DNA of 32,000 bases, taken from an uncultured Erysipelotrichaceae bacterium. Lineage in GTDB: Bacteria > Bacillota_I > Bacilli_A > Erysipelotrichales > Erysipelotrichaceae. Where the stretch lies: positions 2,000,408 through 2,032,407 of the forward strand of contig OW818668.1 in assembly GCA_942493105.1 (NCBI GenBank). Reading direction: 5' to 3'. Positions 2,138 through 31,858 of this stretch are shown piece by piece. The notes under the pieces were generated by a model. It ran no database searches. It was not told the DNA's origin and worked only from the letters and a program-made list of their open reading frames with translations. Position numbers and translations under genes: made by a program. Within the stretch, counting starts at the first letter, position 1, and every line of letters starts with the position of its first letter.

Positions 2138-3796
2138 ATGAAGCATGCATCCCTAGAAGAAATGCTCGTCAATGAAAAGATCATTACTCAAGCTCAATTA
2201 GAAGAAGTCAATCTGATTCAGAAAGAAACAGGTCAGGCTACTTTTTATATCATCCTAGATCATCAGTTTGCCAAAGAAAAAGATGTTTTAAGAATCCTTG
2301 CTAAAAGTCTAAAAATGGATTTTGTTGACAACCTCATCAACAACATCAACACAGATGTGATACGTTCTTTTCCACAACAATTGGCTCAAAAATATAAAAT
2401 GTGCCCTTTAAGAGTTCATGAAGGAACCCTTACATTGGCTACCAGCAATCCATTTAACGTTACCGCAATAGAAGACATCAGTATGCTGATTGGACTCTCT
2501 ATCAACACAGTATTGTCTACCAAGACCGATATTGAAGTAGCCATCGATCGTCTTTATACAAAACGCAGTGAAAAGAATGAGCAAGGTGAAGACATCGCCA
2601 ATGAAGGTGATGAAGCTGAAAACGAAGCAACCGTAGAAACATCATCTGTAGTTAGGATCGTAAACAATCTGATCATCGATGCGTATAAAGTCAATGCCAG
2701 TGATATCCATATTGAACCAGAAGCCAACTTTACCAGAGTACGATTCAGAGTTGATGGTGATCTAATAAAGCATATCGATTTCGATAAAGAAAAACACTCT
2801 TTGATTTCTACCCGCATCAAGATCTTATCTGGCCTTAACATCGCAGAAAAACGCTTGCCTCAAGATGGCAGTTTCCAATTCAACCATGACTTTAAAAAAA
2901 TAGACATCCGAGTATCTACCTTACCAACCCCTTATGGCGAAAATATCGTCATGCGTCTTTTAGGGGCTGATCAAAACATCGAGTATTCATTGTCTGGTTT
3001 AGGAATTTCTCCCGCAACGATCATGACCATTGAGAAAGCCATTCGTGTTCCTCATGGGATCATTTTGGTCACAGGACCTACCGGTTCAGGTAAGACCACG
3101 ACCTTATATTCGATCTTAGCGAAATTAGCAGTTCCTACCAAAGCCATAAAGACCGTTGAAGATCCCATAGAACGAAAATTTGAAGGCATCACTCAAGTTC
3201 AAGTCAACCAAAAAGCTGGTTTGACTTTTGCGGCTGGTCTACGTTCAATTTTACGTCAAGATCCTGATATCATCATGATCGGTGAGATTCGTGATACAGA
3301 AACCGCAGAAATCGCCATCAGATCTGCCATTACCGGTCACTTGGTCTTATCGACCATCCATACCAATGATGCTTTATCTTCAGTCATACGTTTGGTCGAT
3401 ATGGGCATTGAGCCTTTTAAAGTAGGATCCTCATTGGTCTGTATTATTTCACAACGTTTGGTTAAAAAGATCTGTGTCCACTGTAAGAAAAAAGTTGACA
3501 TAAGCACAACTGAAGCTCGTTTACTCGCGACTGATTTAACCTATGTGTATGAAGGTGCAGGTTGTCCAAAATGCAACAATACCGGATATAGCGGCCGCTT
3601 AGCTGTCTTTGAGATCGTCTTGATTGATGGACACCTAGAAGATTTGATTTCTCGTGGTGCTTCATTAGAAGACCTTAGAAACTATGCTAAAGAGAAGAAG
3701 ATCCCAATGTTGAGAGATGAAGTTATGAACTATGTTCAAATTGGAACAACTACTGTAGAAGAAGCCTTACGTATCTTATATAATGTTGAAAACTAA
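2138..3796 (+). CDS. pilB: Type IV pilus extension ATPase PilB (GspE/PilB family)
   Basis: N-terminal T2SSE_N-type domain. Walker A GPTGSGKTTT, Asp box, Walker B DPDIIMIGEIRD, His box LSTIHTND. Tetracysteine C-x2-C ... C-x2-C (CVHCKKK ... CPKCNNTG). RBS AGAGG 7 nt upstream. Confidence 0.9.
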   Translation: MKHASLEEMLVNEKIITQAQLEEVNLIQKETGQATFYIILDHQFAKEKDVLRILAKSLKMDFVDNLINNINTDVIRSFPQQLAQKYKMCPLRVHEGTLTLATSNPFNVTAIEDISMLIGLSINTVLSTKTDIEVAIDRLYTKRSEKNEQGEDIANEGDEAENEATVETSSVVRIVNNLIIDAYKVNASDIHIEPEANFTRVRFRVDGDLIKHIDFDKEKHSLISTRIKILSGLNIAEKRLPQDGSFQFNHDFKKIDIRVSTLPTPYGENIVMRLLGADQNIEYSLSGLGISPATIMTIEKAIRVPHGIILVTGPTGSGKTTTLYSILAKLAVPTKAIKTVEDPIERKFEGITQVQVNQKAGLTFAAGLRSILRQDPDIIMIGEIRDTETAEIAIRSAITGHLVLSTIHTNDALSSVIRLVDMGIEPFKVGSSLVCIISQRLVKKICVHCKKKVDISTTEARLLATDLTYVYEGAGCPKCNNTGYSGRLAVFEIVLIDGHLEDLISRGASLEDLRNYAKEKKIPMLRDEVMNYVQIGTTTVEEALRILYNVEN

Positions 3797-3800
3797 ACTA

Positions 3801-3827
3801 AAAGTGCCAAAAATGGCACTTTTATTC
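3801..3827 (+). terminator. Rho-independent terminator after pilB
   Basis: Hairpin AAAGTGCCA-AAAA-TGGCACTTT followed by a T-rich run. Confidence 0.7.
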
Positions 3828-3920
3828 TTATTATCAGAATTTGCTTTTAATTTGAGCATAATGGTGGTAAGTTAAAATCGAGAATGGTAAAGTAACTTTA
3901 CTAAAAAGGAGAATATTCAT

Positions 3921-4700
3921 ATGGACATTAAATTTCAAAAGCTTAGACGTTTTAACTTAATCATGGGTCTATTTCATTTAGTTCAAGGGGTAGCCATGTT
4001 GTTTCTGGCAACCAGTGTGATTCAAAAAATCGCAGCATTTCAACCTACAGTCGTTCAGTATTTCTTACAATTCAATTTAGCAACACAATCTTTGGAACCA
4101 GCCGTTAAAGATTTGTTCCAGTTGCCCTTTGGCATCTTGGTTGCCAGTTTCTTATTGATTTCAGCGCTTGCACATGGTTTGATCTATCTCAGCGGTGATA
4201 AATACATCAATGATCTAAAGAAAGGCATCAATCAATTCCGTTGGTTTGAATATGCTTTCAGTTCTTCCATCATGATCGTCTTGATTGCTACCCTATTTGG
4301 CGTTTACGATATTGGCTCACTTGTTTTAATTTTCTTGGTCAATGCAGCCATGAATCTGTTTGGTTTAGATATGGAACTCATCAATGCCGGAACTAAAAAA
4401 GAAAAAGTAAACTGGGGTCCATTTATTTGGGGTTCAGTCGCAGGCTTAGCACCTTGGATCGTCATCTTATTGTATATGTTTGGCTCTGGTAATTTCGATA
4501 TGACCCCATGGTTTGTATGGGCCATCGTCGGGACCTACTTCGTTGCCTTCAATACCTTCCCCATCAACATGATCCTGCAATACAAACGTGTTGGAAAGTG
4601 GAAAGATTACCTCTACGGAGAACGTGTCTATATCATCTTAAGTTTAGCTGCTAAATCGATCTTGGCTTGGTTGGTTCTGTTTGGAGCCATGCAGCCTTAA
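3921..4700 (+). CDS. Heliorhodopsin (7-TM retinal-binding protein, inverted-topology rhodopsin family)
   Basis: 259 aa with 7 predicted TM helices. Motifs match my recollection of heliorhodopsin 48C12 along the whole length: FNLIMGLFHLVQG, NQFRWFEYAFSSSIMIVLIA, GERVYIILSLAAKSILAW. Schiff-base Lys K245 (nt 4653-4655), counter-ion Glu E110 (nt 4248-4250), His19 and His85 are present. RBS AAGGAG 9 nt upstream, with terminators on both sides. Confidence 0.8.
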   Translation: MDIKFQKLRRFNLIMGLFHLVQGVAMLFLATSVIQKIAAFQPTVVQYFLQFNLATQSLEPAVKDLFQLPFGILVASFLLISALAHGLIYLSGDKYINDLKKGINQFRWFEYAFSSSIMIVLIATLFGVYDIGSLVLIFLVNAAMNLFGLDMELINAGTKKEKVNWGPFIWGSVAGLAPWIVILLYMFGSGNFDMTPWFVWAIVGTYFVAFNTFPINMILQYKRVGKWKDYLYGERVYIILSLAAKSILAWLVLFGAMQP

Positions 4701-4715
4701 TCTTATGTTTATACA

Positions 4716-4742
4716 AAGGATGTCTTAGGCATCCTTTTTTTC
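4716..4742 (+). terminator. Rho-independent terminator after the heliorhodopsin gene
   Basis: AAGGATG-TCTTAGG-CATCCTT followed by a T run of about 8. Confidence 0.75.
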
Positions 4743-4841
4743 ATAATAAATAACGTTATGAATTTGTTGTCTGAAATTATTTATGATTCAGTTGAAATAA
4801 GAATAAGCGCTTTGAAGTATAATGAAGTCGAGGTATTTCTC

Positions 4842-5147
4842 ATGGAAAACATGGAACTGATTTGTTTCAACATCATATCAAATGCTGGTTCAGCTAAATC
4901 TTCTTTCTTAGATGCTTTAAGTGCCATCAAAATCAAACAGTTTGATTCAGCGAAATCAAAACTAAAAGAAGGCGAACATTATCTTAGAGAAGCCCACAAG
5001 ACTCATATGGGCATCATCTCGCAAGAAGCCAGTGGTATCAAAACCGAATTCTCACTCTTACTGATGCATGCGGAGGATCAAATCAATACCGCTGAGATCA
5101 TTAAGATCCTAGTCGATGAATTGATTCAACTGTATCCAAAAACATAA
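4842..5147 (+). CDS. PTS lactose/cellobiose-family EIIA component (orphan)
   Basis: Three-helix EIIA-Lac/Cel pattern (ELICFNIISNAGSAKSSFLDAL ... EAHKTHMGIISQEA ... LLLMHAEDQ). I prefer the ATG at 4842 (GAGG 8 nt upstream) over the track start at 4758. No EIIB or EIIC is nearby. Confidence 0.75.
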   Translation: MENMELICFNIISNAGSAKSSFLDALSAIKIKQFDSAKSKLKEGEHYLREAHKTHMGIISQEASGIKTEFSLLLMHAEDQINTAEIIKILVDELIQLYPKT

Positions 5148-5169
5148 AAAGCGACTCAAGTCGCTTTTT
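5146..5169. terminator. Bidirectional terminator shared by the convergent EIIA and helicase genes
   Basis: A5-AGCGAC-TCAA-GTCGCT-T5. The helicase stop codon TGA lies in the hairpin loop. Confidence 0.65.
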
Positions 5170-6469
5170 GTTTGTTTCTATGTCCATTTTGATAATTAGG
5201 TTTAGGACCCTCTTTTTTAAATGAAGCTGATGGATGTGGTTTTTGACGATGGAAGCGGGCTGGATCTTTATCCCCGAATTTCTTATCGACCGCTGCAGGT
5301 TTACTGGTAAAGACAGGCTCTGTCGGTCTGATACGATGACCACGCGGACTGAAAGGATGGTCATGAGTAATGGGGATCGACTTATTGATGAGCTTTTCAA
5401 TGTCTCTTAATAAGCCTCTTTCTTCTTCATCACAGAAAGATATGGCTGTACCACCAAGTCCTGCACGTCCTGTTCGTCCAATACGATGAACATAGGTTTC
5501 AGACACTTCAGGCAGATCATAAATCAACACATGGCTCAATTCATCGATATCCAATCCTCTGGCAGCGATGTCGGTTGCGACCAGAATTTTTGTTTTTCTG
5601 TCCTTAAAGGATTTCAAGGCAGCTTGTCTTGCATTTTGAGATTTGTTCCCATGAATGGCTAAAGCAGGCAAACCAGAGATCACCAGCGCTTTAACGATTT
5701 TGTCAGCACCATGTTTGGTTCTAGAGAAGACCAATACAGATTCAATATCTAAGGTTTTAAGCAGATGGATCAATAAATGGATCTTATCAGGTTTATTGAC
5801 GAAATAGAGCTGTTGATTGATCGTATCTACAGTAGAGGCAACAGGTGTTACTTCAACTTTAACTGGATTTTTTAAGATAGAATTGGATAATATGGCGATT
5901 TCTTTAGGCATAGTAGCTGAAAAGAACATCGTTTGTCTCACATGAGGCAAATATGAAATGATCTTACGTACATCATGGATCATCCCCATATCCAACATCA
6001 TATCTGCTTCATCCAAAACAAAGTATTTCACATGTTCAAGATGAATGAATTTCTGATTGATCAAATCAAGTAAACGACCTGGTGTAGCGACTAAAATATC
6101 AACGCCTCTAGCCAATTCATCGGTTTGAGGACGCTGAGAAACGCCACCATAGATCGCAATGGTCCTGGAATTTAAGTACTTCCCATAGGTCTTAAAACTG
6201 TCTTGGATTTGAATGGCCAATTCTCTGGTCGGTGCTAAAATCAAAGCTTGGATCTTTCTTGGTGTTTTGGATGCTCCGCTTAAGCCTTGAAGTATAGGAA
6301 TCGCAAATGCTGCAGTTTTTCCTGTGCCGGTTTGGGCAGTTCCTAAAAGATCTTTGCCTTCTAATAAAGGACCAATCGCTTGGGCCTGGATGGGTGTTGG
6401 GTCTTTATAACCTTCTTCTTTGAGTGCCCGTTGTATCGGGGCGATGATGTTTAAATTTTCAAATTGCAT
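5156..6469 (-). CDS. DEAD-box ATP-dependent RNA helicase (RhlE/CshA-like) with basic C-terminal tail
   Basis: Q motif, AQTGTGKTAAF, PTRELA, DEAD, SAT, HRIGRTGRAG. I prefer the ATG giving MQFENLNI (AAGGA RBS) over the track's GTG at 6487. Confidence 0.9.
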   Translation of the reverse strand: MQFENLNIIAPIQRALKEEGYKDPTPIQAQAIGPLLEGKDLLGTAQTGTGKTAAFAIPILQGLSGASKTPRKIQALILAPTRELAIQIQDSFKTYGKYLNSRTIAIYGGVSQRPQTDELARGVDILVATPGRLLDLINQKFIHLEHVKYFVLDEADMMLDMGMIHDVRKIISYLPHVRQTMFFSATMPKEIAILSNSILKNPVKVEVTPVASTVDTINQQLYFVNKPDKIHLLIHLLKTLDIESVLVFSRTKHGADKIVKALVISGLPALAIHGNKSQNARQAALKSFKDRKTKILVATDIAARGLDIDELSHVLIYDLPEVSETYVHRIGRTGRAGLGGTAISFCDEEERGLLRDIEKLINKSIPITHDHPFSPRGHRIRPTEPVFTSKPAAVDKKFGDKDPARFHRQKPHPSASFKKEGPKPNYQNGHRNKQKAT

Positions 6470-7131: not shown

Positions 7132-7307
7132 ATGAACCTCTTAGATTCATTTTAAACGAATATTATAAAAAAACTAGAGTTTCATTTTGAAGCTTTCCTT
7201 ATGTTTCAATCTTTGAGTCAATTTGTCCAAGGAAATCTGATTCATACATATTATTTACTTACACTCTATACAAGCAAAAATAGGTGTGCTACAATACTTT
7301 CAGTATA

Positions 7308-7343
7308 GGTCCTTTAAATCAAGACGAGAGCTTGATAAGGTAC
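7308..7343 (+). promoter_or_regulatory. Putative PyrR-binding anti-antiterminator hairpin in the pyrP leader
   Basis: GGUCCUUUAAAUCAAGACGAGAGCUUGAUAAGGUAC has a lower stem CCUU/AAGG, an upper stem AUCAAG/CUUGAU and a purine-rich GAGAG loop. This resembles the Bacillus pyr leader motif UUUAA..CAG.CCAGAGAGGCUG.GAAGG as I recall it. Confidence 0.55.
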
Positions 7344-7362
7344 GATTTAAACCTTCAACTAG

Positions 7363-7393
7363 GGGTCCTTTATACAGAGGGACCCTTTTTTTT
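7363..7393 (+). terminator. Attenuator terminator in the pyrP leader
   Basis: 8-bp stem GGGTCCTT / AGGGACCC with a 7-nt loop, followed by T8, located 43 nt before the pyrP ATG. Its 5' arm repeats GGTCCTTTA from the PyrR hairpin (7308-7316 vs 7364-7372). AAGGUAC at 7337-7343 could alternatively pair with it as an antiterminator. Confidence 0.7.
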
Positions 7394-7435
7394 GAAAAAA
7401 ACCGGGACTATACGAAACTCAAAAGGAGAAAGAGT

Positions 7436-10652: not shown

Positions 10653-10678
10653 AAAAGCGAAATTTCTTCGCTTTTTTT
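10651..10678. terminator. Bidirectional terminator between convergent pepF and rimO
   Basis: A6-AAGCGAA-ATTTC-TTCGCTT-T5. It abuts both stop codons. Confidence 0.75.
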
Positions 10679-11975
10679 ACGCTTTAACTTCTCCATACAA
10701 ATCATAGTCATCATTTCTAAGAATGTTTACTTTCACAAACGAACCGATCTTTAAGGGTTGATCGGATGTAAAAACGACTTCCCCATCGATTTGATCTGGG
10801 GCATAATGGATCGAACGACCACGATAGACATTGGTTCCTCTGTCTTTAGAATCGATCAAAACTTCTAAGTTTGAACCAATCATGGCTTTGATCTTTTCTT
10901 CTGAGATCTTTGCCTGTAAATCCATGACTTGTAGGAGTCTTTCTTGTTTCTCTGTTTCCGAACAGCTGTCTTTCATGAAGTAAGCCGGGGTATCTTCTTC
11001 AAGGGAATAGGCAAAGGCACCTAAACGATCAAATTTGATTTCTTGAATGAAATCAAGCAAGGTTTGAAACTGTTTTTGTGTTTCACCAGGGAATCCTACG
11101 ATCACCGTGGTTCTTAAGATGGCTTGTGGAAACACGTCACGTATCTCTGAAATCACATGTCGTATATCTTCGACTGTTCCTTTACGCGCCATTGCCTTCA
11201 GAAGGTCATTGTCTGCGTGCTGGATGGGAATATCAAAGTATGGGATAACTTTATCACAAGCCTTCATATCCATCAGTAAAGCCCTAGAAACGGCATTAGG
11301 ATACATATATAAGATACGGATCCATTTTAAACCAGGCAACGCATTGAGATCCTTCAAGAGCGATCCTAATTGGTTGGATCCTTGGTCTTCCATGTATCGA
11401 GTGGTATCTTGAGCGATGAGGACCAATTCTTTCACACCTTGTAGGATCAAATGTTGAGCTTCTAGTAATAACTCTTCTTTGGGATACGAATTCAAAGGTC
11501 CTCGAATCAATGGGATCGCACAGTATGTACAACGGTTAGAACAGCCTTCTGCGATCTTCAAATAAGCCGTATGGGCTTTCTTTGAGATTAGACGTTCCAT
11601 CTTTCCATAAGATCCGATGATTTCTGTTTCTAAGACTTCGCTTAAGATCTCATCGAGATGATTGTATTCAGAGACACCGATAAAACGATCGACTTCTGGA
11701 AGTTCTTTGATCAAATCTTCTTTATATCGCTGTGAAAGACAACCGATGACGATCAGTTTCTTTAAGTTCTTTTGTTTATATTCTGCCATATCGAGGATCG
11801 TGTTGATGCTTTCCTCTTTGGCAGGATTGATAAAACCACAGGTATTAACGAAGATGGCGCTTGCTTCATCAAGTGATTTGGTCAAAGTATGCCCATTGGC
11901 TTTAAGTAAGCCCATGACTCTTTCTGAATCCACCTGATTTTTACTGCAGCCTAGTGAAATAAAACCTATTTTCAT
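10677..11975 (-). CDS. rimO: Ribosomal protein S12 methylthiotransferase RimO (radical SAM MTTase)
   Basis: MKIGFISLGCSKNQVDSE N-terminal Cys cluster, radical-SAM CSNRCTYC, C-terminal TRAM domain. I prefer the start at 11975, one nt after the upstream TAA, over the track start at 12038. Confidence 0.85.
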   Translation of the reverse strand: MKIGFISLGCSKNQVDSERVMGLLKANGHTLTKSLDEASAIFVNTCGFINPAKEESINTILDMAEYKQKNLKKLIVIGCLSQRYKEDLIKELPEVDRFIGVSEYNHLDEILSEVLETEIIGSYGKMERLISKKAHTAYLKIAEGCSNRCTYCAIPLIRGPLNSYPKEELLLEAQHLILQGVKELVLIAQDTTRYMEDQGSNQLGSLLKDLNALPGLKWIRILYMYPNAVSRALLMDMKACDKVIPYFDIPIQHADNDLLKAMARKGTVEDIRHVISEIRDVFPQAILRTTVIVGFPGETQKQFQTLLDFIQEIKFDRLGAFAYSLEEDTPAYFMKDSCSETEKQERLLQVMDLQAKISEEKIKAMIGSNLEVLIDSKDRGTNVYRGRSIHYAPDQIDGEVVFTSDQPLKIGSFVKVNILRNDDYDLYGEVKA

Positions 11976-11976
11976 C

Positions 11977-12756
11977 TTAGTACTTCGGATTCTTAACATC
12001 TTTATACGTATATTTGATGTGTTTACGTTGGCGTCCAAAGATGATCCAAGGCAAGTATTCGATCAGCCATACGATTCCAACCAAGACGATCGTAAAGAAG
12101 ACATAGCCCGGATTCCCAAACATTTGTTCAAAGATGACCAGTGGTGATCCAGGAGACGGATAATTCATAAAGAAGAAGTTTGTATCAAATGCTTTATTGA
12201 AATAATAGAGACCAAAGCATAAGATAAGGTGAATGATGAACACCATAGGTAAATTCTTATAATTAGGCTTTAGTTCTCCTGAGAAAACCAACATCACAAT
12301 GAAGGCGATCAAACAGCCATGAGCCAAAAAGCTTTGAATCGATTGGAAATTAAACAACGGTAAAATCAACCAATCCGCAAAAATCAAAGCCATCAGTGCC
12401 CCAACGATTCCTAAGGCATATAAAGATTCCTTGGCTATTTTATTTTTAGTGAAGGCATAGATCAAAATCGTGAATTCTGTGAAACCACATAAATGAAAAG
12501 GCAAATACTCCAGTCTATATCTTCCCATGATGAGATAGGTCACTTGTCTAAATACTTCCATGGAGATGATGAAGATCGCAAAACCTTTTTTAAATTGGGT
12601 CCTAGATGAACTTCTCATCGATCTATACGATAATGACACCCCAATGATGATCAATAATAAAACCCCCAACCAAATCAAATGCGGTGTTGAATAATAATCA
12701 ATGCCCATGCCTTGAGGAACATTATAAAGATCATAGAAGAATGTGCTGAAATCCAT
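11977..12756 (-). CDS. Polytopic integral membrane protein (YwaF/TIGR02206-like, function unknown)
   Basis: About 7 TM helices. The family assignment is from memory of N-terminal and overall topology only. RBS GGGGAGG. Translationally coupled to rimO. Confidence 0.4.
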   Translation of the reverse strand: MDFSTFFYDLYNVPQGMGIDYYSTPHLIWLGVLLLIIIGVSLSYRSMRSSSRTQFKKGFAIFIISMEVFRQVTYLIMGRYRLEYLPFHLCGFTEFTILIYAFTKNKIAKESLYALGIVGALMALIFADWLILPLFNFQSIQSFLAHGCLIAFIVMLVFSGELKPNYKNLPMVFIIHLILCFGLYYFNKAFDTNFFFMNYPSPGSPLVIFEQMFGNPGYVFFTIVLVGIVWLIEYLPWIIFGRQRKHIKYTYKDVKNPKY

Positions 12757-12861: not shown

Positions 12862-12937
12862 TGGTGGTTCCGGCCGGAATTGAACCGGCGACACCTTGAT
12901 TTTCAGTCAAGTGCTCTACCTACTGAGCTACAGAACC
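12862..12937 (-). tRNA. tRNA-Phe (GAA), CCA encoded
   Basis: Cloverleaf read by hand. Anticodon loop CUGAAAA, T-loop GGTTCAATTCC, acceptor GGTTCTG/CGGAACC. Confidence 0.9.
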
Positions 12938-12938
12938 A

Positions 12939-13015
<77 letters not shown>

Positions 13016-13041
13016 ATAAGGAAATGAACTGGCAATTAAAA

Positions 13042-13118
<77 letters not shown>

Positions 13119-13149
13119 ATAAATAAGTAACCAAAACTTCGAGTAAAGA

Positions 13150-13238
13150 TGGCGGAGGAAGTGGGATTCGAACCCACGCATGCTTTCACATCTGCTGGTT
13201 TTCAAGACCAGTCCCTTAAACCGCTTGGGTATTCCTCC
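13150..13238 (-). tRNA. tRNA-Ser (UGA), long variable arm
   Basis: Anticodon loop CUUGAAA, long extra arm, discriminator G, CCA encoded. Confidence 0.9.
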
Positions 13239-13249
13239 ATTGTTAGAAA

Positions 13250-13326
<77 letters not shown>

Positions 13327-13331
13327 ACATT

Positions 13332-13408
13332 TGGTAGCGGGAGTCGGATTCGAACCGACGACCGACCGGGTATGAACCGATTGCTCTAGCCAACTGAGCT
13401 ATCCCGCC
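13332..13408 (-). tRNA. Elongator tRNA-Met (CAU)
   Basis: Anticodon loop UUCAUAC. Acceptor GGCGGGA/TCCCGCT fully paired, so it is not an initiator. Confidence 0.85.
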
Positions 13409-13421
13409 ACAAATTTTAAAC

Positions 13422-13498
13422 TGGTCGGGATGACAGGATTTGAACCTGCGACCCCTTGATCCCAAATCAAGTGCACTACCAAGCTGTGCTACATCCCG
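13422..13498 (-). tRNA. tRNA-Pro (UGG)
   Basis: Anticodon loop UUUGGGA, 5' CGGGATG acceptor. Confidence 0.9.
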
Positions 13499-13517
13499 AT
13501 GTATGATGGTAATAAAA

Positions 13518-13594
13518 TGGCGCGCCCAGCAGGAGTCGAACCCGCAACCCTTTGATCCGTAGTCAAATACTCTATCCAATTGAGCTATGGGCGC
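13518..13594 (-). tRNA. tRNA-Arg (ACG)
   Basis: Anticodon loop CUACGGA. Confidence 0.9.
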
Positions 13595-13626
13595 AATGTG
13601 GTGCTTGGACAACACAAGTGCAAACG

Positions 13627-13713
13627 TGGTGGGGATGAAGGGACTTGAACCCTTACGATGTTGCCATCAACGGATTTTAAGTCCGTTGCGTCTGCCTATT
13701 CCGCCACATCCCC
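13627..13713 (-). tRNA. tRNA-Leu (UAA), long variable arm
   Basis: Anticodon loop CUUAAAA, long extra arm. Confidence 0.9.
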
Positions 13714-13716
13714 AAT

Positions 13717-13790
13717 TGGAGGTTCCTGTCGGAATCGAACCGACGGTCACAGAGTTGCAGTCTATTGCCTTACCACTTGGCTAAGGAACC
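13717..13790 (-). tRNA. tRNA-Cys (GCA)
   Basis: Anticodon loop CUGCAAC. Discriminator U73, typical of tRNA-Cys. Confidence 0.9.
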
Positions 13791-27283: not shown

Positions 27284-27361
27284 TGGGGCGACCGACGGGG
27301 CTCGAACCCGCGAGTGTCGGAGCCACAATCCGATGCGTTAACCAACTTCGCCACGACCGCC
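27284..27361 (-). tRNA. tRNA-His (GUG) with encoded G-1 and CCA
   Basis: Anticodon loop UUGUGGC. An extra 5' G sits opposite the C73 discriminator. Confidence 0.85.
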
Positions 27362-28198: not shown

Positions 28199-28221
28199 AG
28201 AAAAACCGGGTTTTACCGGTT
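28199..28221 (-). terminator. Terminator of the Tad-like operon
   Basis: Minus strand AACCGG-TAAAAC-CCGGTT followed by TTTCTT. It overlaps the stop codon of the TadE-like gene. Confidence 0.5.
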
Positions 28222-28551
28222 CATCGGCCGTGTGATCAATTGAATCATCGCGGACTTTTCATAATTAAGCAAAGGAATGCTTAACGGATAACTAACTTTG
28301 ATAGAATAACGCTTGGTCAGTTCATCTTGAGTGATGGTAGAAGAACAGAAACTGCATTGAATAGGATGATTTTGAATCAACAACGCAACAGATTCGTCAT
28401 AACGATTTTGATGTTCAATAAGCGCTAAAATCGTTTCTCCAAAAAGTCTGGCTTGATTCTGTGATAAGATCACTTGCGTAAAACTCATGCCCAAGATCAC
28501 AAACATCATACCAAACAGAAAGACCATACCTAATTCAAATGCCCCTTTCAT
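28213..28551 (-). CDS. TadE-like minor pilin / pseudopilin
   Basis: 112 aa. N-terminus MKGAFELGMVFLFGMMFVILG has a short charged start, a Glu, then a hydrophobic helix. Its ATG overlaps the stop of the flp-like ORF (TAATG). Located downstream of tadC-flp. Confidence 0.5.
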   Translation of the reverse strand: MKGAFELGMVFLFGMMFVILGMSFTQVILSQNQARLFGETILALIEHQNRYDESVALLIQNHPIQCSFCSSTITQDELTKRYSIKVSYPLSIPLLNYEKSAMIQLITRPMNR

Positions 28552-28697
28552 TAGCTGTTAGAGGTCATTTGAGCCCACTGCGCCGATAAAGTTTCCTGCA
28601 TCGTTGTTTTAAATCCTTCTGAGAATACAATCATTCCAGTTGCGATCACGGTTACGACCAATACCAATCCATACTCTTCAAAAAATGCTTTCATCAT
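28551..28697 (-). CDS. flp: Flp-family pilin candidate (47-48 aa), absent from the supplied ORF track
   Basis: Hand translation: MMKAFFEEYGLVLVVTVIATGMIVFSEGFKTTMQETLSAQWAQMTSNS. EYGL followed by about 20 hydrophobic residues is the Flp core. GGAGGTGAG directly upstream contains the tadC stop codon TGA. Either of the two tandem ATGs (28697 or 28694) may be used. Confidence 0.65.
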   Translation of the reverse strand: MMKAFFEEYGLVLVVTVIATGMIVFSEGFKTTMQETLSAQWAQMTSNS

Positions 28698-28698
28698 C

Positions 28699-29454
28699 TC
28701 ACCTCCTTTCAAACATCGTCATCAAGACACTCATCATGGCACTTAGGAAAACCAAAGTCACTCCAATTAACGGGATCATCCCTAACCATTGGCTGATCAT
28801 CAATTGCTTTTGTTTGGCATATTGACGTTCTTGCCTTAGCCACTTGGAAGTCGATGCAATCATTCGATTAAACTGTCTTGAGGCATCTTGTTGGCCTGTG
28901 TTTTCAAATCTATACAACCACTTCATGGCTCTTTGAATCTCAGAAAGCTCCAATCGGCTCATAAACGCTGTATATGAGCTCAATCTTCCAGGTTGCGAGA
29001 GTAATCTCTGATGCAGTAACTTGAGTTCTGAACGAAGATACAAAGGTGCTTGAGGGATCGAACACTCTATAGCTTTGATGACCGTATTGTTTTGAAGCAA
29101 GATTTGAAGCTGTCTCAAATAAATCGGAAACTGATAGCGGATCAGATCAGACTGTCGTTTGACTTCAGATTTCAAAGAGAACCAAGGGCTGACATAGATC
29201 AATAAGATCAAGCTAATAAACAACAGATCAAATTGAATTGAATTGACCCAGACTAAGGTAATCATCCAAGCCCAACGAACTTGATGACTTCGTCTATACC
29301 TCCTTCTTTGCCACAAACTGGGGTTTTCCTTTTCTAAAATCCAAAAATAATGAATAAGTTTAGCATCTGATAAACGACTGATCCAAGGTTCCAAAATAGG
29401 ATCAAGGGCAATCCAACTCAAGAGAATGATCCAATGAAGAACTATATTTTCCAT
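28699..29454 (-). CDS. tadC: TadC-like platform protein (T2SS-F domain)
   Basis: N-terminal TM helices, a cytoplasmic helical T2SSF-like region (IRYQFPIYLRQLQILLQNNTVIKAIE ... EIQRAMKWLYRFENTG) and a C-terminal TM pair. Confidence 0.6.
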   Translation of the reverse strand: MENIVLHWIILLSWIALDPILEPWISRLSDAKLIHYFWILEKENPSLWQRRRYRRSHQVRWAWMITLVWVNSIQFDLLFISLILLIYVSPWFSLKSEVKRQSDLIRYQFPIYLRQLQILLQNNTVIKAIECSIPQAPLYLRSELKLLHQRLLSQPGRLSSYTAFMSRLELSEIQRAMKWLYRFENTGQQDASRQFNRMIASTSKWLRQERQYAKQKQLMISQWLGMIPLIGVTLVFLSAMMSVLMTMFERR

Positions 29455-30248
29455 ATTTCCTCACGTTCTTCGATCCATCGCTTAGATAGTAGATTTTGAA
29501 CTACAGCAATCGTAATCTGAATCATCAACATAAAGATCAGTAATGCCATATCCGTTAAGTTCATTTGAGCTTGTAAGCCTGTTTTCTTGAGCATGGATTG
29601 ACTGAAATAAGCAATGAACAAGGCAAAGATACTTAAGAGAATAATGCGGTTTCTTTGTTGTTTCTCCATTTGTTTGAACAGTAAAGTATCTTCGGCCCAT
29701 TCTTCAATATCATCTTGAATGATATCTAAACTTAAACCATAATCATGCGTTCCAAATAATTCGACTGCGACCATCAAATGAATCAAATTCCCAATGACAA
29801 AATGAGGATATGATTTTAGAAAAAACAACGCCGAATGATTTAGATCTTTACCTTGTTCAAGATCATTGATCCAAGCTAGAACCGATTCTTTAAGCTTACC
29901 TTTGATCAGATCTTGACTCTCGGTAAAACTGAAGTAGATCTTAGGATGATGTTTAAACAGAGCCAGAACTTGTTGAAAAAAATCAATCATCATATAGAAA
30001 TCTGTTTCTTGTCTTTTATAGATCTCTTCAGTAATGGAAAACCAGATCCCTAATCCAAATGCACTGGTCATGATGATAAGTTGATTGATGATACCTAGAC
30101 CTAATAAGTATCCAAGAATATAAAAAACAAAAACCGACACTAGTCCAAACAGACCGTGTTGAGTCAACCAGATCCAGCGTCTAGGTTTCACGATGGATAC
30201 CTTTATTCGGCAATTCATCAAAACTAAGCTCTGGATTCTTCTCATCAT
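29442..30248 (-). CDS. tadB: TadB-like platform protein (T2SS-F domain)
   Basis: Same architecture as tadC. The start is uncertain: the track ATG overlaps tadA by 68 nt, and an in-frame GTG at 30191 would overlap by 11 nt. Confidence 0.55.
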   Translation of the reverse strand: MMRRIQSLVLMNCRIKVSIVKPRRWIWLTQHGLFGLVSVFVFYILGYLLGLGIINQLIIMTSAFGLGIWFSITEEIYKRQETDFYMMIDFFQQVLALFKHHPKIYFSFTESQDLIKGKLKESVLAWINDLEQGKDLNHSALFFLKSYPHFVIGNLIHLMVAVELFGTHDYGLSLDIIQDDIEEWAEDTLLFKQMEKQQRNRIILLSIFALFIAYFSQSMLKKTGLQAQMNLTDMALLIFMLMIQITIAVVQNLLSKRWIEEREEIWKI

Positions 30249-31170
30249 CTTTATAAATCAAGATCGTCTTGGGTTTAAAATGTTCATCCAAGTGATAGTA
30301 CACTAATTCTCTGATTTTCCTTCGTATGCCTTTGGATGAGCTTTGAATTTCAATATGAAGCCCAAAATCAAGTGTGGAATGAACAAGAGCCAATAGATTG
30401 GTGTTTGTGACATCCACTTCAGGCATCATATGCATTAAACGCTGAGGAATCGCACTGGCATTTTCCGCATGAACCGTACTTAAGACACTGGCTCCTGTCG
30501 AACAGCTTTGAATCAGTTGCATGACTTCCCTACCTCTGACTTCAGACACACATATCCAATCCGGTCTTTGTCTTAAGGCTGCTTTTATAGCAGCCTCATA
30601 ATCAAATAAAGGGCTGATTTTGATCATTACGTGATCTTTATGCGGATGAATCTCACCATAGCGCAACTCTAGGCTATCTTCGATCGTTATGACACGCTGA
30701 TAAGCTGGAATACTTTTCATCAGATACTTTACCAATTCTGTTTTACCGCTGCCAGGCAAACCACTGATCAAGATATTTGATCGAGCTTTGATGGCATCCT
30801 TAAGTAACTCGATGACCCATGCAGGTGCATAATTCTTCATCATCAGATCACTGATTCTTAATAACGCTGGTGTCTTACGGATTGAAATGCTTAAGCCACT
30901 GCGACAAACACTCTGATGAAGCATACTAATGCGCAATTCTTTGGTTTCGGCTTCTAGGATAGGCGAACTGATATTGAAAGGCAAATTGACATAATTTGCG
31001 ATCTTATAAGCAAAGGCCTGCATAAACTCATGCGCAGTAAATGGTTCAATCGGATATCTTCCTTTTTCTAGATGATCGACCCAACACTGTTTACCGTTAT
31101 AGTTGATGTCGGTTATTTGATCATCTCTAACCCAAGGGCTTAATATCCCAAAATCAAAGTCATCGTTCAT
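30181..31170 (-). CDS. tadA: TadA/CpaF-type secretion ATPase (VirB11-like)
   Basis: Walker A GLPGSGKTE, Asp box ITIEDSLEL, Walker B RQRPDWICVSEVRG, His box LSTVHAEN. At 329 aa it is short for CpaF. Confidence 0.8.
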   Translation of the reverse strand: MNDDFDFGILSPWVRDDQITDINYNGKQCWVDHLEKGRYPIEPFTAHEFMQAFAYKIANYVNLPFNISSPILEAETKELRISMLHQSVCRSGLSISIRKTPALLRISDLMMKNYAPAWVIELLKDAIKARSNILISGLPGSGKTELVKYLMKSIPAYQRVITIEDSLELRYGEIHPHKDHVMIKISPLFDYEAAIKAALRQRPDWICVSEVRGREVMQLIQSCSTGASVLSTVHAENASAIPQRLMHMMPEVDVTNTNLLALVHSTLDFGLHIEIQSSSKGIRRKIRELVYYHLDEHFKPKTILIYKDDEKNPELSFDELPNKGIHRET

Positions 31171-31858
31171 GAAGCACCTTGATCAACGCAGTACCTTCAA
31201 TCAAAATACTTTCTTGGTCTGCATTTTGACCAGAACTTGGAGTTATGATGAGATCCCCCAATTCAATGGCTTTGGTCAAGAGTGATACTTGATCTTGATT
31301 GAGTGCAATCAACATCAACTTAGGATAATCTGTTGCCTTTTCAAGTTCTTTTCCATTTTTATCTTTAAGACTTAATATTCTAACATTACTGATCAATCGA
31401 TCCACGACTGTCAATCGATTGTGTAAGATTGAAATATACAGATCAACTTTTTGATAGGGTTGCAGTGTATTTCCTGAGGTCATTTTTAAATCGACATCCA
31501 ACGCATAGACCACTTGGTTATCCAACAATAAAAGACTTGGGGAATCCTTAGCCTCTTGGATGGATTCAACCATTGAATCATAGATAAAACTACCCTGTGG
31601 GATCTGTGATCGAATCAGTGTGTATTTGCCGATTAGATCTTTGATATCTAGTACGATAGAGGTTTGCAGATAAGCTTTGGGAACCTTGATCATCACGATG
31701 TCTTTTTCACTGATCAATGTCCTGGGTTGTAGCACATTGGCAGCTATAGGTACATCCACCAGGTCTAAGCGTTGATCGACATAAATCTTTGATCCCAAAT
31801 ATGCAATACCGCAAAGTGCTGCTGCCAATAAACCCAATATGATTCTATTCGATTTCAT
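31160..31858 (-). CDS. cpaB: CpaB/RcpC-like Flp pilus assembly protein
   Basis: N-terminal TM anchor. SAF-like segment (VPIAANVLQPRTLISEKDI) and RcpC-like C-terminal region. Overlaps tadA by 11 nt. Confidence 0.6.
   Translation of the reverse strand: MKSNRIILGLLAAALCGIAYLGSKIYVDQRLDLVDVPIAANVLQPRTLISEKDIVMIKVPKAYLQTSIVLDIKDLIGKYTLIRSQIPQGSFIYDSMVESIQEAKDSPSLLLLDNQVVYALDVDLKMTSGNTLQPYQKVDLYISILHNRLTVVDRLISNVRILSLKDKNGKELEKATDYPKLMLIALNQDQVSLLTKAIELGDLIITPSSGQNADQESILIEGTALIKVLHER

Follow-up and report, generated by a model that had tools for sequence, protein, structure and literature searches.

Heliorhodopsins (HeRs) are retinal-binding membrane proteins that sense light. Several characterised members act by direct binding to another protein: AbHeR binds glutamine synthetase (PMC9529153), TfHeR binds a photolyase (PMC9769723) and OcHeR binds the OmrDE ATP-binding cassette (ABC) exporter (PMC11109279). 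Ten classes of partner recur in HeR operons, namely glutamine synthetase (GS), NAD+ synthetase, photolyase, MerR, TerC, ABC transporter, short-chain dehydrogenase/reductase (SDR), alpha/beta hydrolase, DUF2177 and DUF2238, with no pilus or phosphotransferase system (PTS) genes among them (PMC11109279). The physiological role of HeRs in general is not yet settled. Here we analyse a stand-alone HeR gene, called heR below, in a 32-kb stretch of DNA (contig OW818668.1; the whole stretch is referred to as the window).

3921..4700, + strand: heliorhodopsin (heR) coding sequence, ATG start, 259 amino acids (open reading frame call)

This is a genuine, intact heliorhodopsin gene under selection. Its product is very probably a functional heliorhodopsin, and its host a monoderm resembling Erysipelotrichaceae. 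The original prediction, made from the letters of the window, had described the protein as a heliorhodopsin from end to end and had pointed to a family-profile search as a check. With the search now run, PF18761 (Heliorhodopsin) matched the 259-aa protein along the whole profile (positions 1-242 of 242, E=4.2e-94, 314.9 bits against a cut-off of 26.7). The NCBIfam equivalog NF038020, "heliorhodopsin HeR", scored 290.4 bits against a cut-off of 100, and the NCBI pipeline would therefore call the protein "heliorhodopsin HeR". The type-1 rhodopsin profile PF01036 gave no match to it at E<=0.01. Sequence matches in the PDB were TaHeR (6is6, E=8e-59), Cv06 (9vfc, E=1.2e-50) and 48C12 (6su3, E=1.6e-44), and the match to TaHeR extends to the fold, as described in the next section. 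The G+C content of the gene is 39.9%, compared with 39.8% for the window.

The gene is a typical, already known member of a well-populated and automatically annotated family. We detected 5062 homologues of its product at E<=1e-10; homologues 78-80% identical carry the name "heliorhodopsin HeR" in NCBI, which already has an identical protein, encoded on a 2.03-Mb contig. Taken on its own, the gene is one more unlinked stand-alone copy among more than 5000 detectable homologues.

Fold, retinal pocket and selection

An AlphaFold2 (AF2) model of the protein, built on a 30-sequence clade alignment, has seven transmembrane helices (pLDDT 80.5, pTM 0.80). Helix 2 runs on into a short helix (92-100), and a beta-hairpin (43-67, strands 43-52 and 57-67) is located between helices 1 and 2. 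In a Foldseek search with this model the top 10 hits were all HeR structures, with TM scores of 0.78-0.90 (0.87/0.90 for 6is6). Type-1 rhodopsins ranked next, with TM about 0.55-0.63 and identity of about 10-15%.

Alignment with 48C12 upheld the four active-site residues that had been named beforehand, Lys245, Glu110, His19 and His85. Lys245 lies within SLAAKS on helix 7 and aligns with K241 of 48C12 (6su3) and K238 of TaHeR (6is6). Glu110, within RWFEY on helix 3, corresponds to 48C12 E107, the single counterion position. His19 and His85 are the sole histidines of the protein and align with 48C12 H23 and H80, respectively. Further 48C12 equivalents (heR residue first) are Q22=Q26, S81=S76, R107=R104, N141=N138, M144=M141 and E152=E149 and, towards the C-terminus, F210=F206, N211=N207, Y230=Y226, E234=E230 and S241=S237. 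K245, E110, H19, H85 and all other mapped residues are invariant in the 30-sequence clade alignment, except N211, for which conservation is at least 90%.

The N-terminus together with connecting segments 2, 4 and 6 carries 16 Lys/Arg residues, compared with 2 on the opposite face. By this positive-inside count, the N-terminus is predicted to be cytoplasmic and the C-terminus to lie outside, the inverted orientation that defines the family. The ratio of nonsynonymous to synonymous substitution rates (dN/dS) between heR and its relatives is 0.02-0.08, which indicates that heR is under strong purifying selection. Taken together with the invariant Lys, Glu, His and ring-pocket residues, this is the pattern expected from selection for retinal photochemistry.

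Photochemistry, chromophore supply and carriers

The gene product would thus be a membrane protein of the seven-helix HeR fold, with a predicted cytoplasmic N-terminus and an intact retinal pocket. From characterised HeRs, all-trans retinal would be expected to bind as a Schiff base at Lys245, with Glu110 as single counterion. The His19/His85 pair and the polar network of Ser81 and Ser241 are present. Absorption of green light would lead to photoisomerisation, and the Schiff-base proton would be moved only internally, towards the His19/His85 region; a late intermediate would last about a second and no ion would be pumped. The output would be light-dependent regulation by direct binding to another protein, by analogy with AbHeR, TfHeR and OcHeR. 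As for colour, the tuning positions of natural HeRs are 48C12 Q213 and the residue preceding the Schiff-base Lys (PMC7807009). The heR protein carries Met217 and Ala244 at these positions, the same pair as TaHeR, so that an absorption maximum near 540-545 nm, in the green, is predicted.

A lateral fenestration motif is present in most HeRs. In 48C12 numbering, this motif of a proposed carotenoid site consists of an aromatic pair 162/206, Gly169, non-bulky residues at 166/210 and Asn207, and most HeRs have been proposed to bind exogenous xanthophylls, on docking and motif statistics with no measured complex (Kornilov et al. 2025, bioRxiv 10.1101/2025.11.27.691015). As judged by alignment to 9vfc and 6su3, which addresses the motif only, it is complete in heR (F168/F210, G175, S172/P214 and N211). 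One could think of a protein that works mainly as an energy or ion device, either a light-gated proton transporter like the viral V2HeR3 or a two-antenna harvester with scavenged xanthophylls. Besides the complete motif, such a device would be in line with the proposed binding of xanthophylls, which a monoderm could take up, and with the proton transport reported for a viral HeR. The nearest solved relatives are however TaHeR (44% identity) and 48C12 (about 39%), neither of which reportedly showed transport in the original 2018-2019 papers. Moreover, the transporting HeRs form a viral subfamily without the carotenoid-site motif (bioRxiv 10.1101/2025.11.27.691015), and the second antenna goes back to the docking and motif statistics mentioned above. 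We consider a mainly energy or ion function very improbable, and a non-pumping photoreceptor of the kind outlined above is retained for what follows.

To place the gene among its carriers, 80 related HeR loci were retrieved. The nearest ones (86-96% identity, syntenic) come from records titled Erysipelotrichaceae bacterium, metagenome-assembled genomes (MAGs) of the phylum Bacillota. With the envelope type taken from the taxonomy of these loci, the host is, as far as can be told, a monoderm. Loci at 72-85% identity belong to Erysipelotrichaceae, several Clostridia families, Anaerolineae, Dehalococcoidia and MAGs labelled Thermotogae. Between these carrier groups synonymous substitutions have reached saturation; the plateau of protein identity at ~75-80% thus reflects strong constraint, whatever the share of horizontal transfer. 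A neighbour-joining (NJ) tree of the 80 HeRs was star-like, with Erysipelotrichaceae spread over several groups. As the branches of this tree carry no support values and dS between phyla is at saturation, we draw no conclusion from it on recent horizontal transfer.

No phage carriage was found, and plasmid carriage was limited to two distant cases at 52-58% identity. A heR copy 58% identical to the present one (L127, NZ_CP141705.1, 5592-6368) is located on a 10.5-kb mobilizable plasmid of Lactococcus petauri, near IS6 transposase, recombinase and MobC/relaxase genes, which shows that a stand-alone heR can travel on mobile DNA in Bacillota. Two other loci, L042 (OY763325.1, 3.98 Mb) and L054, encode HeRs 75-76% identical to ours in MAGs labelled Thermotogae/Thermotogaceae. 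Thermotogae possess an outer toga, and these carriers are an awkward fit with the claim that HeRs are confined to monoderms. A HeR of Mesotoga infera has already been expressed (PMC7807009).

Several points qualify this reading. The first concerns the chromophore. As had been noted before, the 32 kb hold no gene for carotenoid or retinal biosynthesis: phytoene synthase, phytoene desaturase, lycopene cyclase and Blh all went undetected when the main open reading frames (ORFs) of the window were scanned with Pfam. Chromophore-synthesis genes are also absent from the 25 commonest neighbour families of 76 related HeR genes. The chromophore must derive from genes outside the 32 kb or from the environment. 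The second concerns habitat. Relatives at 72-85% identity come from MAGs named for anaerobic membrane bioreactors (AnMBR), deep groundwater (HGW, CROMO) and sediments, habitat being read from isolate names only, and Proteiniclasticum ruminis and Fusibacter bizertensis, both cultured anaerobes, are among the carriers. These names, rumen isolates included, suggest anoxic and often dark habitats, in which light sensing is less self-evident. Third, the partner through which such a sensor would act is not encoded next to the gene, and the neighbourhood offers no candidate. Finally, the promoter of heR (see below) is putative: the element TGgTAAAGT is read as an extended -10 from consensus and conservation alone.

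The first two of these points would also suit a light-independent role in an anaerobe lineage, in which the protein would be a retinal-free membrane protein or the sensor of another ligand. The known carotenoid-cleaving oxygenases that form retinal require O2, the habitats suggested by the AnMBR, groundwater and sediment MAGs and by Proteiniclasticum ruminis and Fusibacter are largely dark, and no chromophore-synthesis genes were found in the window or among the commonest neighbour families. Nevertheless, neither the Lys and the Glu nor the two His or the ring-pocket residues vary within the clade, and dN/dS is 0.02-0.08; the habitats are those of isolate names, and monoderm cells can scavenge retinal and carotenoids. 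A light-independent role therefore appears very improbable, and retinal photochemistry remains the function to which the conserved pocket points.

A further proposal, which we regard as rather unlikely, is that heR belongs to an unusually constrained HeR clade whose carriers seem for the most part to be strict anaerobes living in anoxic places with little or no light, and are maybe unable to make retinal. If true, retinal or xanthophylls would have to be scavenged, and the HeRs of the clade could warn the cell of light, and thereby of oxygen, at the surface, or could have a light-free function. The cultured carriers Proteiniclasticum ruminis, Fusibacter bizertensis and Alkalibacter rhizosphaerae make the origin of the chromophore, and the use of a light sensor in an anaerobe, addressable.

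Transcription unit and neighbouring genes

The gene appears to be transcribed alone, from its own promoter located between two intrinsic terminators. The elements proposed for this unit are the following.

3799..3824, + strand (scored on the minus strand too): intrinsic terminator of pilB, hairpin AAAGTGCC...GGCACTTTT and a T run (terminator scan)
3885..3893, + strand: putative extended -10 element TGgTAAAGT of heR (conservation among nine syntenic relatives)
3887..3901, no strand: perfect 15-bp palindrome GTAAAGTAACTTTAC over the -10 and the likely transcription start (sequence inspection)
3908..3911, + strand: ribosome-binding site GGAG within AAAAAGGAGAA, 9 nt 5' of the ATG
4715..4737, + strand: intrinsic terminator of heR, 10-bp stem AAAGGATGTC...GGCATCCTTT followed by TTTTTC (terminator scan)

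The original prediction had described heR as monocistronic, with terminators at 3801-3827 and 4716-4742. These are the same elements as the two listed here, and the terminators on both sides, together with the conserved promoter block, agree with that description. The region 3500-5300 contains 6 terminator-like sites, compared with 1.0 expected from shuffles. We aligned the pilB-heR spacer across nine syntenic relatives. Eight of the 9 retain the hairpin of the pilB terminator; past it, the spacer diverges until a strongly conserved block, AATGGTAAAGTAnnTTTACTAAAAGGAG, directly 5' of the start codon, and the AAAGGAG upstream of heR is kept in relatives. The best-conserved block of this intergenic alignment is TGgTAAAGT, the flanks of which diverge; a sigma-70 scan, which requires a -35, did not list the 3885..3893 element. 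With a conserved terminator and a promoter of its own, heR appears insulated from the pilus operon. The same arrangement is seen more widely: an upstream gene was called in 71 related loci, same-strand upstream gaps were at least 45 bp in 49 of 50 cases, and the heR clade is generally stand-alone.

The outer 5-bp arms of the palindrome, GTAAA/TTTAC, are retained in 7 of the 9 relatives. GTAAAGTAACTTTAC occurs once in the 32-kb window (0.06 chance matches expected), and it may be an operator or reflect mere conservation of the promoter and leader. Because the promoter motif is found only once in the window, there is no sign of an operator common to heR and its neighbours. An Rfam search of the heR leader gave chance-level matches only, and no family. 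Palindromes were also compared in the upstream regions of three sets of loci (L010/L012/L016-L018/L020, L028/L032/L035/L038 and L064-L074). A different palindrome is conserved shortly 5' of the gene in every HeR lineage: GTAAAGTAACTTTAC in the lineage of the window, GCAATTTAATTGC in a second Erysipelotrichaceae lineage and GCACTTAAGT-type palindromes in two further lineages. These may be the operators of regulators.

The genes on either side of heR are as follows.

2138..3796, + strand: PilB/GspE-family type IV pilus assembly ATPase, last of a pilM-pilO-pilB run (PF00437 E=2e-125, and MshEN)
4842..5147, + strand: orphan lactose/cellobiose-type PTS EIIA, revised start (PF02255 E=7.5e-30)

Both had been recognised in the original prediction as a pilus ATPase and an orphan PTS EIIA, and the domain matches, together with the absence of any EIIB or EIIC from the 32-kb window, bear this out. 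The PilB-like ATPase scores below the NCBIfam equivalog cut-offs, and EIIA reaches 84 bits against an NCBIfam cut-off of 137. For the EIIA gene, a start at ATG 4842 (101 aa) is more probable than one at 4758, since conservation in the closest relative is confined to residues 28-129. Its terminator (5144-5171) is common with the convergent DEAD-box helicase gene.

From this adjacency it had been suggested that the HeR could feed a light signal to PilB or EIIA and so control surface behaviour or carbon signalling. The three genes are indeed adjacent and on the same strand, and HeRs are known to regulate both soluble and membrane partners by direct binding. The order pilM-pilO-pilB-HeR is kept in L002-L005, L022, L025 and the metagenomic contig L085, among which PilB identity falls to 76%. 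However, the syntenic loci with enough flank also retain the DEAD-box helicase, xpt and pepF, and two of them (L004 and L022) retain the miaB-like and TMEM164 genes as well. Since unrelated genes are kept alongside, the conservation of pilB-HeR is that of a whole block of housekeeping genes. Between HeR and EIIA/DEAD, other genes intervene in L002, L004 and L005; the intervening set in L002 includes a ThrE_2-family gene, and L002 has no EIIA match. The terminator and the separate promoter between pilB and heR likewise speak against a common function.

Outside this block the association was not maintained. Of the 80 related HeR loci, a mere 6 lie no more than 10 kb from a pilB homologue. In the reverse test, 4 of 5 metagenomic contigs carrying a 73-89% identical pilB and downstream sequence had no HeR there. 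These four (L081-L084) have pilM-pilO-pilB with PilB 73-74% identical, about as close as in the syntenic L022, and a convergent unrelated gene 3' of pilB instead of a HeR. The 137 immediate neighbours of 76 HeR genes fell into 129 Pfam families, none of which occurred more than 6 times, and no clade-wide partner emerged. The commonest were MGS (6), T2SSE (5), SelO (5) and DUF429 (5), all lineage-specific, and no PTS family figured among the 25 commonest neighbour families (each with at least 2 members). BLAST clustering of the ten nearest genes likewise gave no clade-wide partner. Neither pilus nor PTS genes belong to the ten operon partners listed above, and none of these ten classes flanks heR here (PMC11109279); the sole ABC transporter in the window is a pot-like importer on the opposite strand, 9 kb from heR.

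Taken together, these results leave the pilus ATPase and EIIA as neighbours of heR by lineage-specific synteny only. The HeR-pilB or HeR-EIIA adjacency, for which recurrence had been proposed as a test, is limited to close relatives with the entire pilM-to-TMEM164 block in common: pilB orthologues at ~74% identity lack it, and no enrichment of a neighbour family was seen across the clade. That light acts on the type IV pilus or on PTS signalling is thus not borne out, and we regard it as very improbable. In the present analysis pilB is context and is not counted as part of the heR unit. The pilus and PTS adjacency is unsuitable as a functional lead for heR, and a light-dependent HeR acting on a partner encoded elsewhere is the function we keep.

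One lineage has a methylglyoxal synthase gene (PF02142) as the next gene 3' of heR, on the same strand, in six loci, namely L010 (5622-6005) and, at the corresponding position, L012, L016, L017, L018 and L020. This neighbour recalls the glyoxalase/glutaredoxin links to HeR in Actinobacteria described by Bulzu et al.

The rest of the window contains helicase, xpt, nucleobase permease, PepF, radical-SAM enzymes, a tRNA array, nagA/nagB, fba and coaX. The xpt and Xan_ur permease genes diverge from a 300-bp region (7132-7435) in which no purine riboswitch was found at Rfam thresholds; a weak, sub-threshold match to a PyrR-binding site covers 7307-7395 (24.7 bits against 54). The permease, with a listed start at GTG 7286, probably begins near residue 51 (MKDIVHGY). 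A bacterial TMEM164-family protein (PF14808, E=1.5e-40), encoded within 10677-12756 on the minus strand, lies directly upstream of a MiaB-like radical-SAM methylthiotransferase with a 62-nt overlap, and this pair is conserved in L001, L004 and L022. An array of ten tRNA genes (12862-13790, minus strand) comprises Phe, four Met with a CAT anticodon, Ser, Pro, Arg, Leu and Cys; the four with CAT probably include initiator and Ile2 tRNAs. A 103-aa ORF overlapping the array (13304-13615) is probably spurious. A lone tRNA-His is located at 27284-27360 on the minus strand. The region 28213-31858 (minus strand) encodes a second T2SSE-family ATPase, shorter than the first (30181-31170, PF00437 E=1e-30), amid four ORFs without a Pfam match, and may represent another pilus, a competence or a Tad-like system.

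Comparison with known rhodopsins

AbHeR, TfHeR and OcHeR belong to the same family as the present protein. Each of them is encoded in an operon with its partner, whereas heR is monocistronic, and it fits the "helR alone" group of PMC11109279.

Among solved structures, the best relative is TaHeR (Thermoplasmatales archaeon SG8-52-1; 6IS6, 7U55, 7CLJ), which is 44% identical and also 259 aa long. The RWFEY counterion motif, the S-L-x-A-K-S Schiff-base motif and the Met/Ala colour-tuning pair are common to both, while the host of TaHeR is an archaeon. Compared to TaHeR, the heR protein has 7 additional residues in the extracellular beta-hairpin (43-49), 2 in the loop at 160-161 and 3 at 189-191, and it carries Pro214 and Phe168 where TaHeR has Ala and Tyr, respectively.

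The founding member 48C12, from a freshwater actinobacterial fosmid (6SU3, 6SU4, 6UH3, 9LJJ), has all functionally named residues in common with heR. Its structures are matched with TM 0.80-0.84, but identity is only about 39%. Gln213 of 48C12 is replaced by Met217 in heR; in other HeRs, this position moves the absorption maximum by 5-9 nm (PMC7807009).

At the proposed carotenoid site, the F-N-T-F-P sequence of Cv06 from Chromera velia (9VFC; bioRxiv 10.1101/2025.11.27.691015) is identical to that of heR. The Pro of this sequence is common to Cv06 and heR, in contrast to the Ala of 48C12 and TaHeR. Cv06 differs in being eukaryotic and longer (317 aa), with longer termini and loops.

The type-1 rhodopsins resemble heR in their seven helices, in the retinal Schiff base on helix 7 and, remotely, in fold. 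They differ from it in having an Asp pair, where heR has a single Glu, and in the membrane orientation, which is predicted to be opposite in heR.

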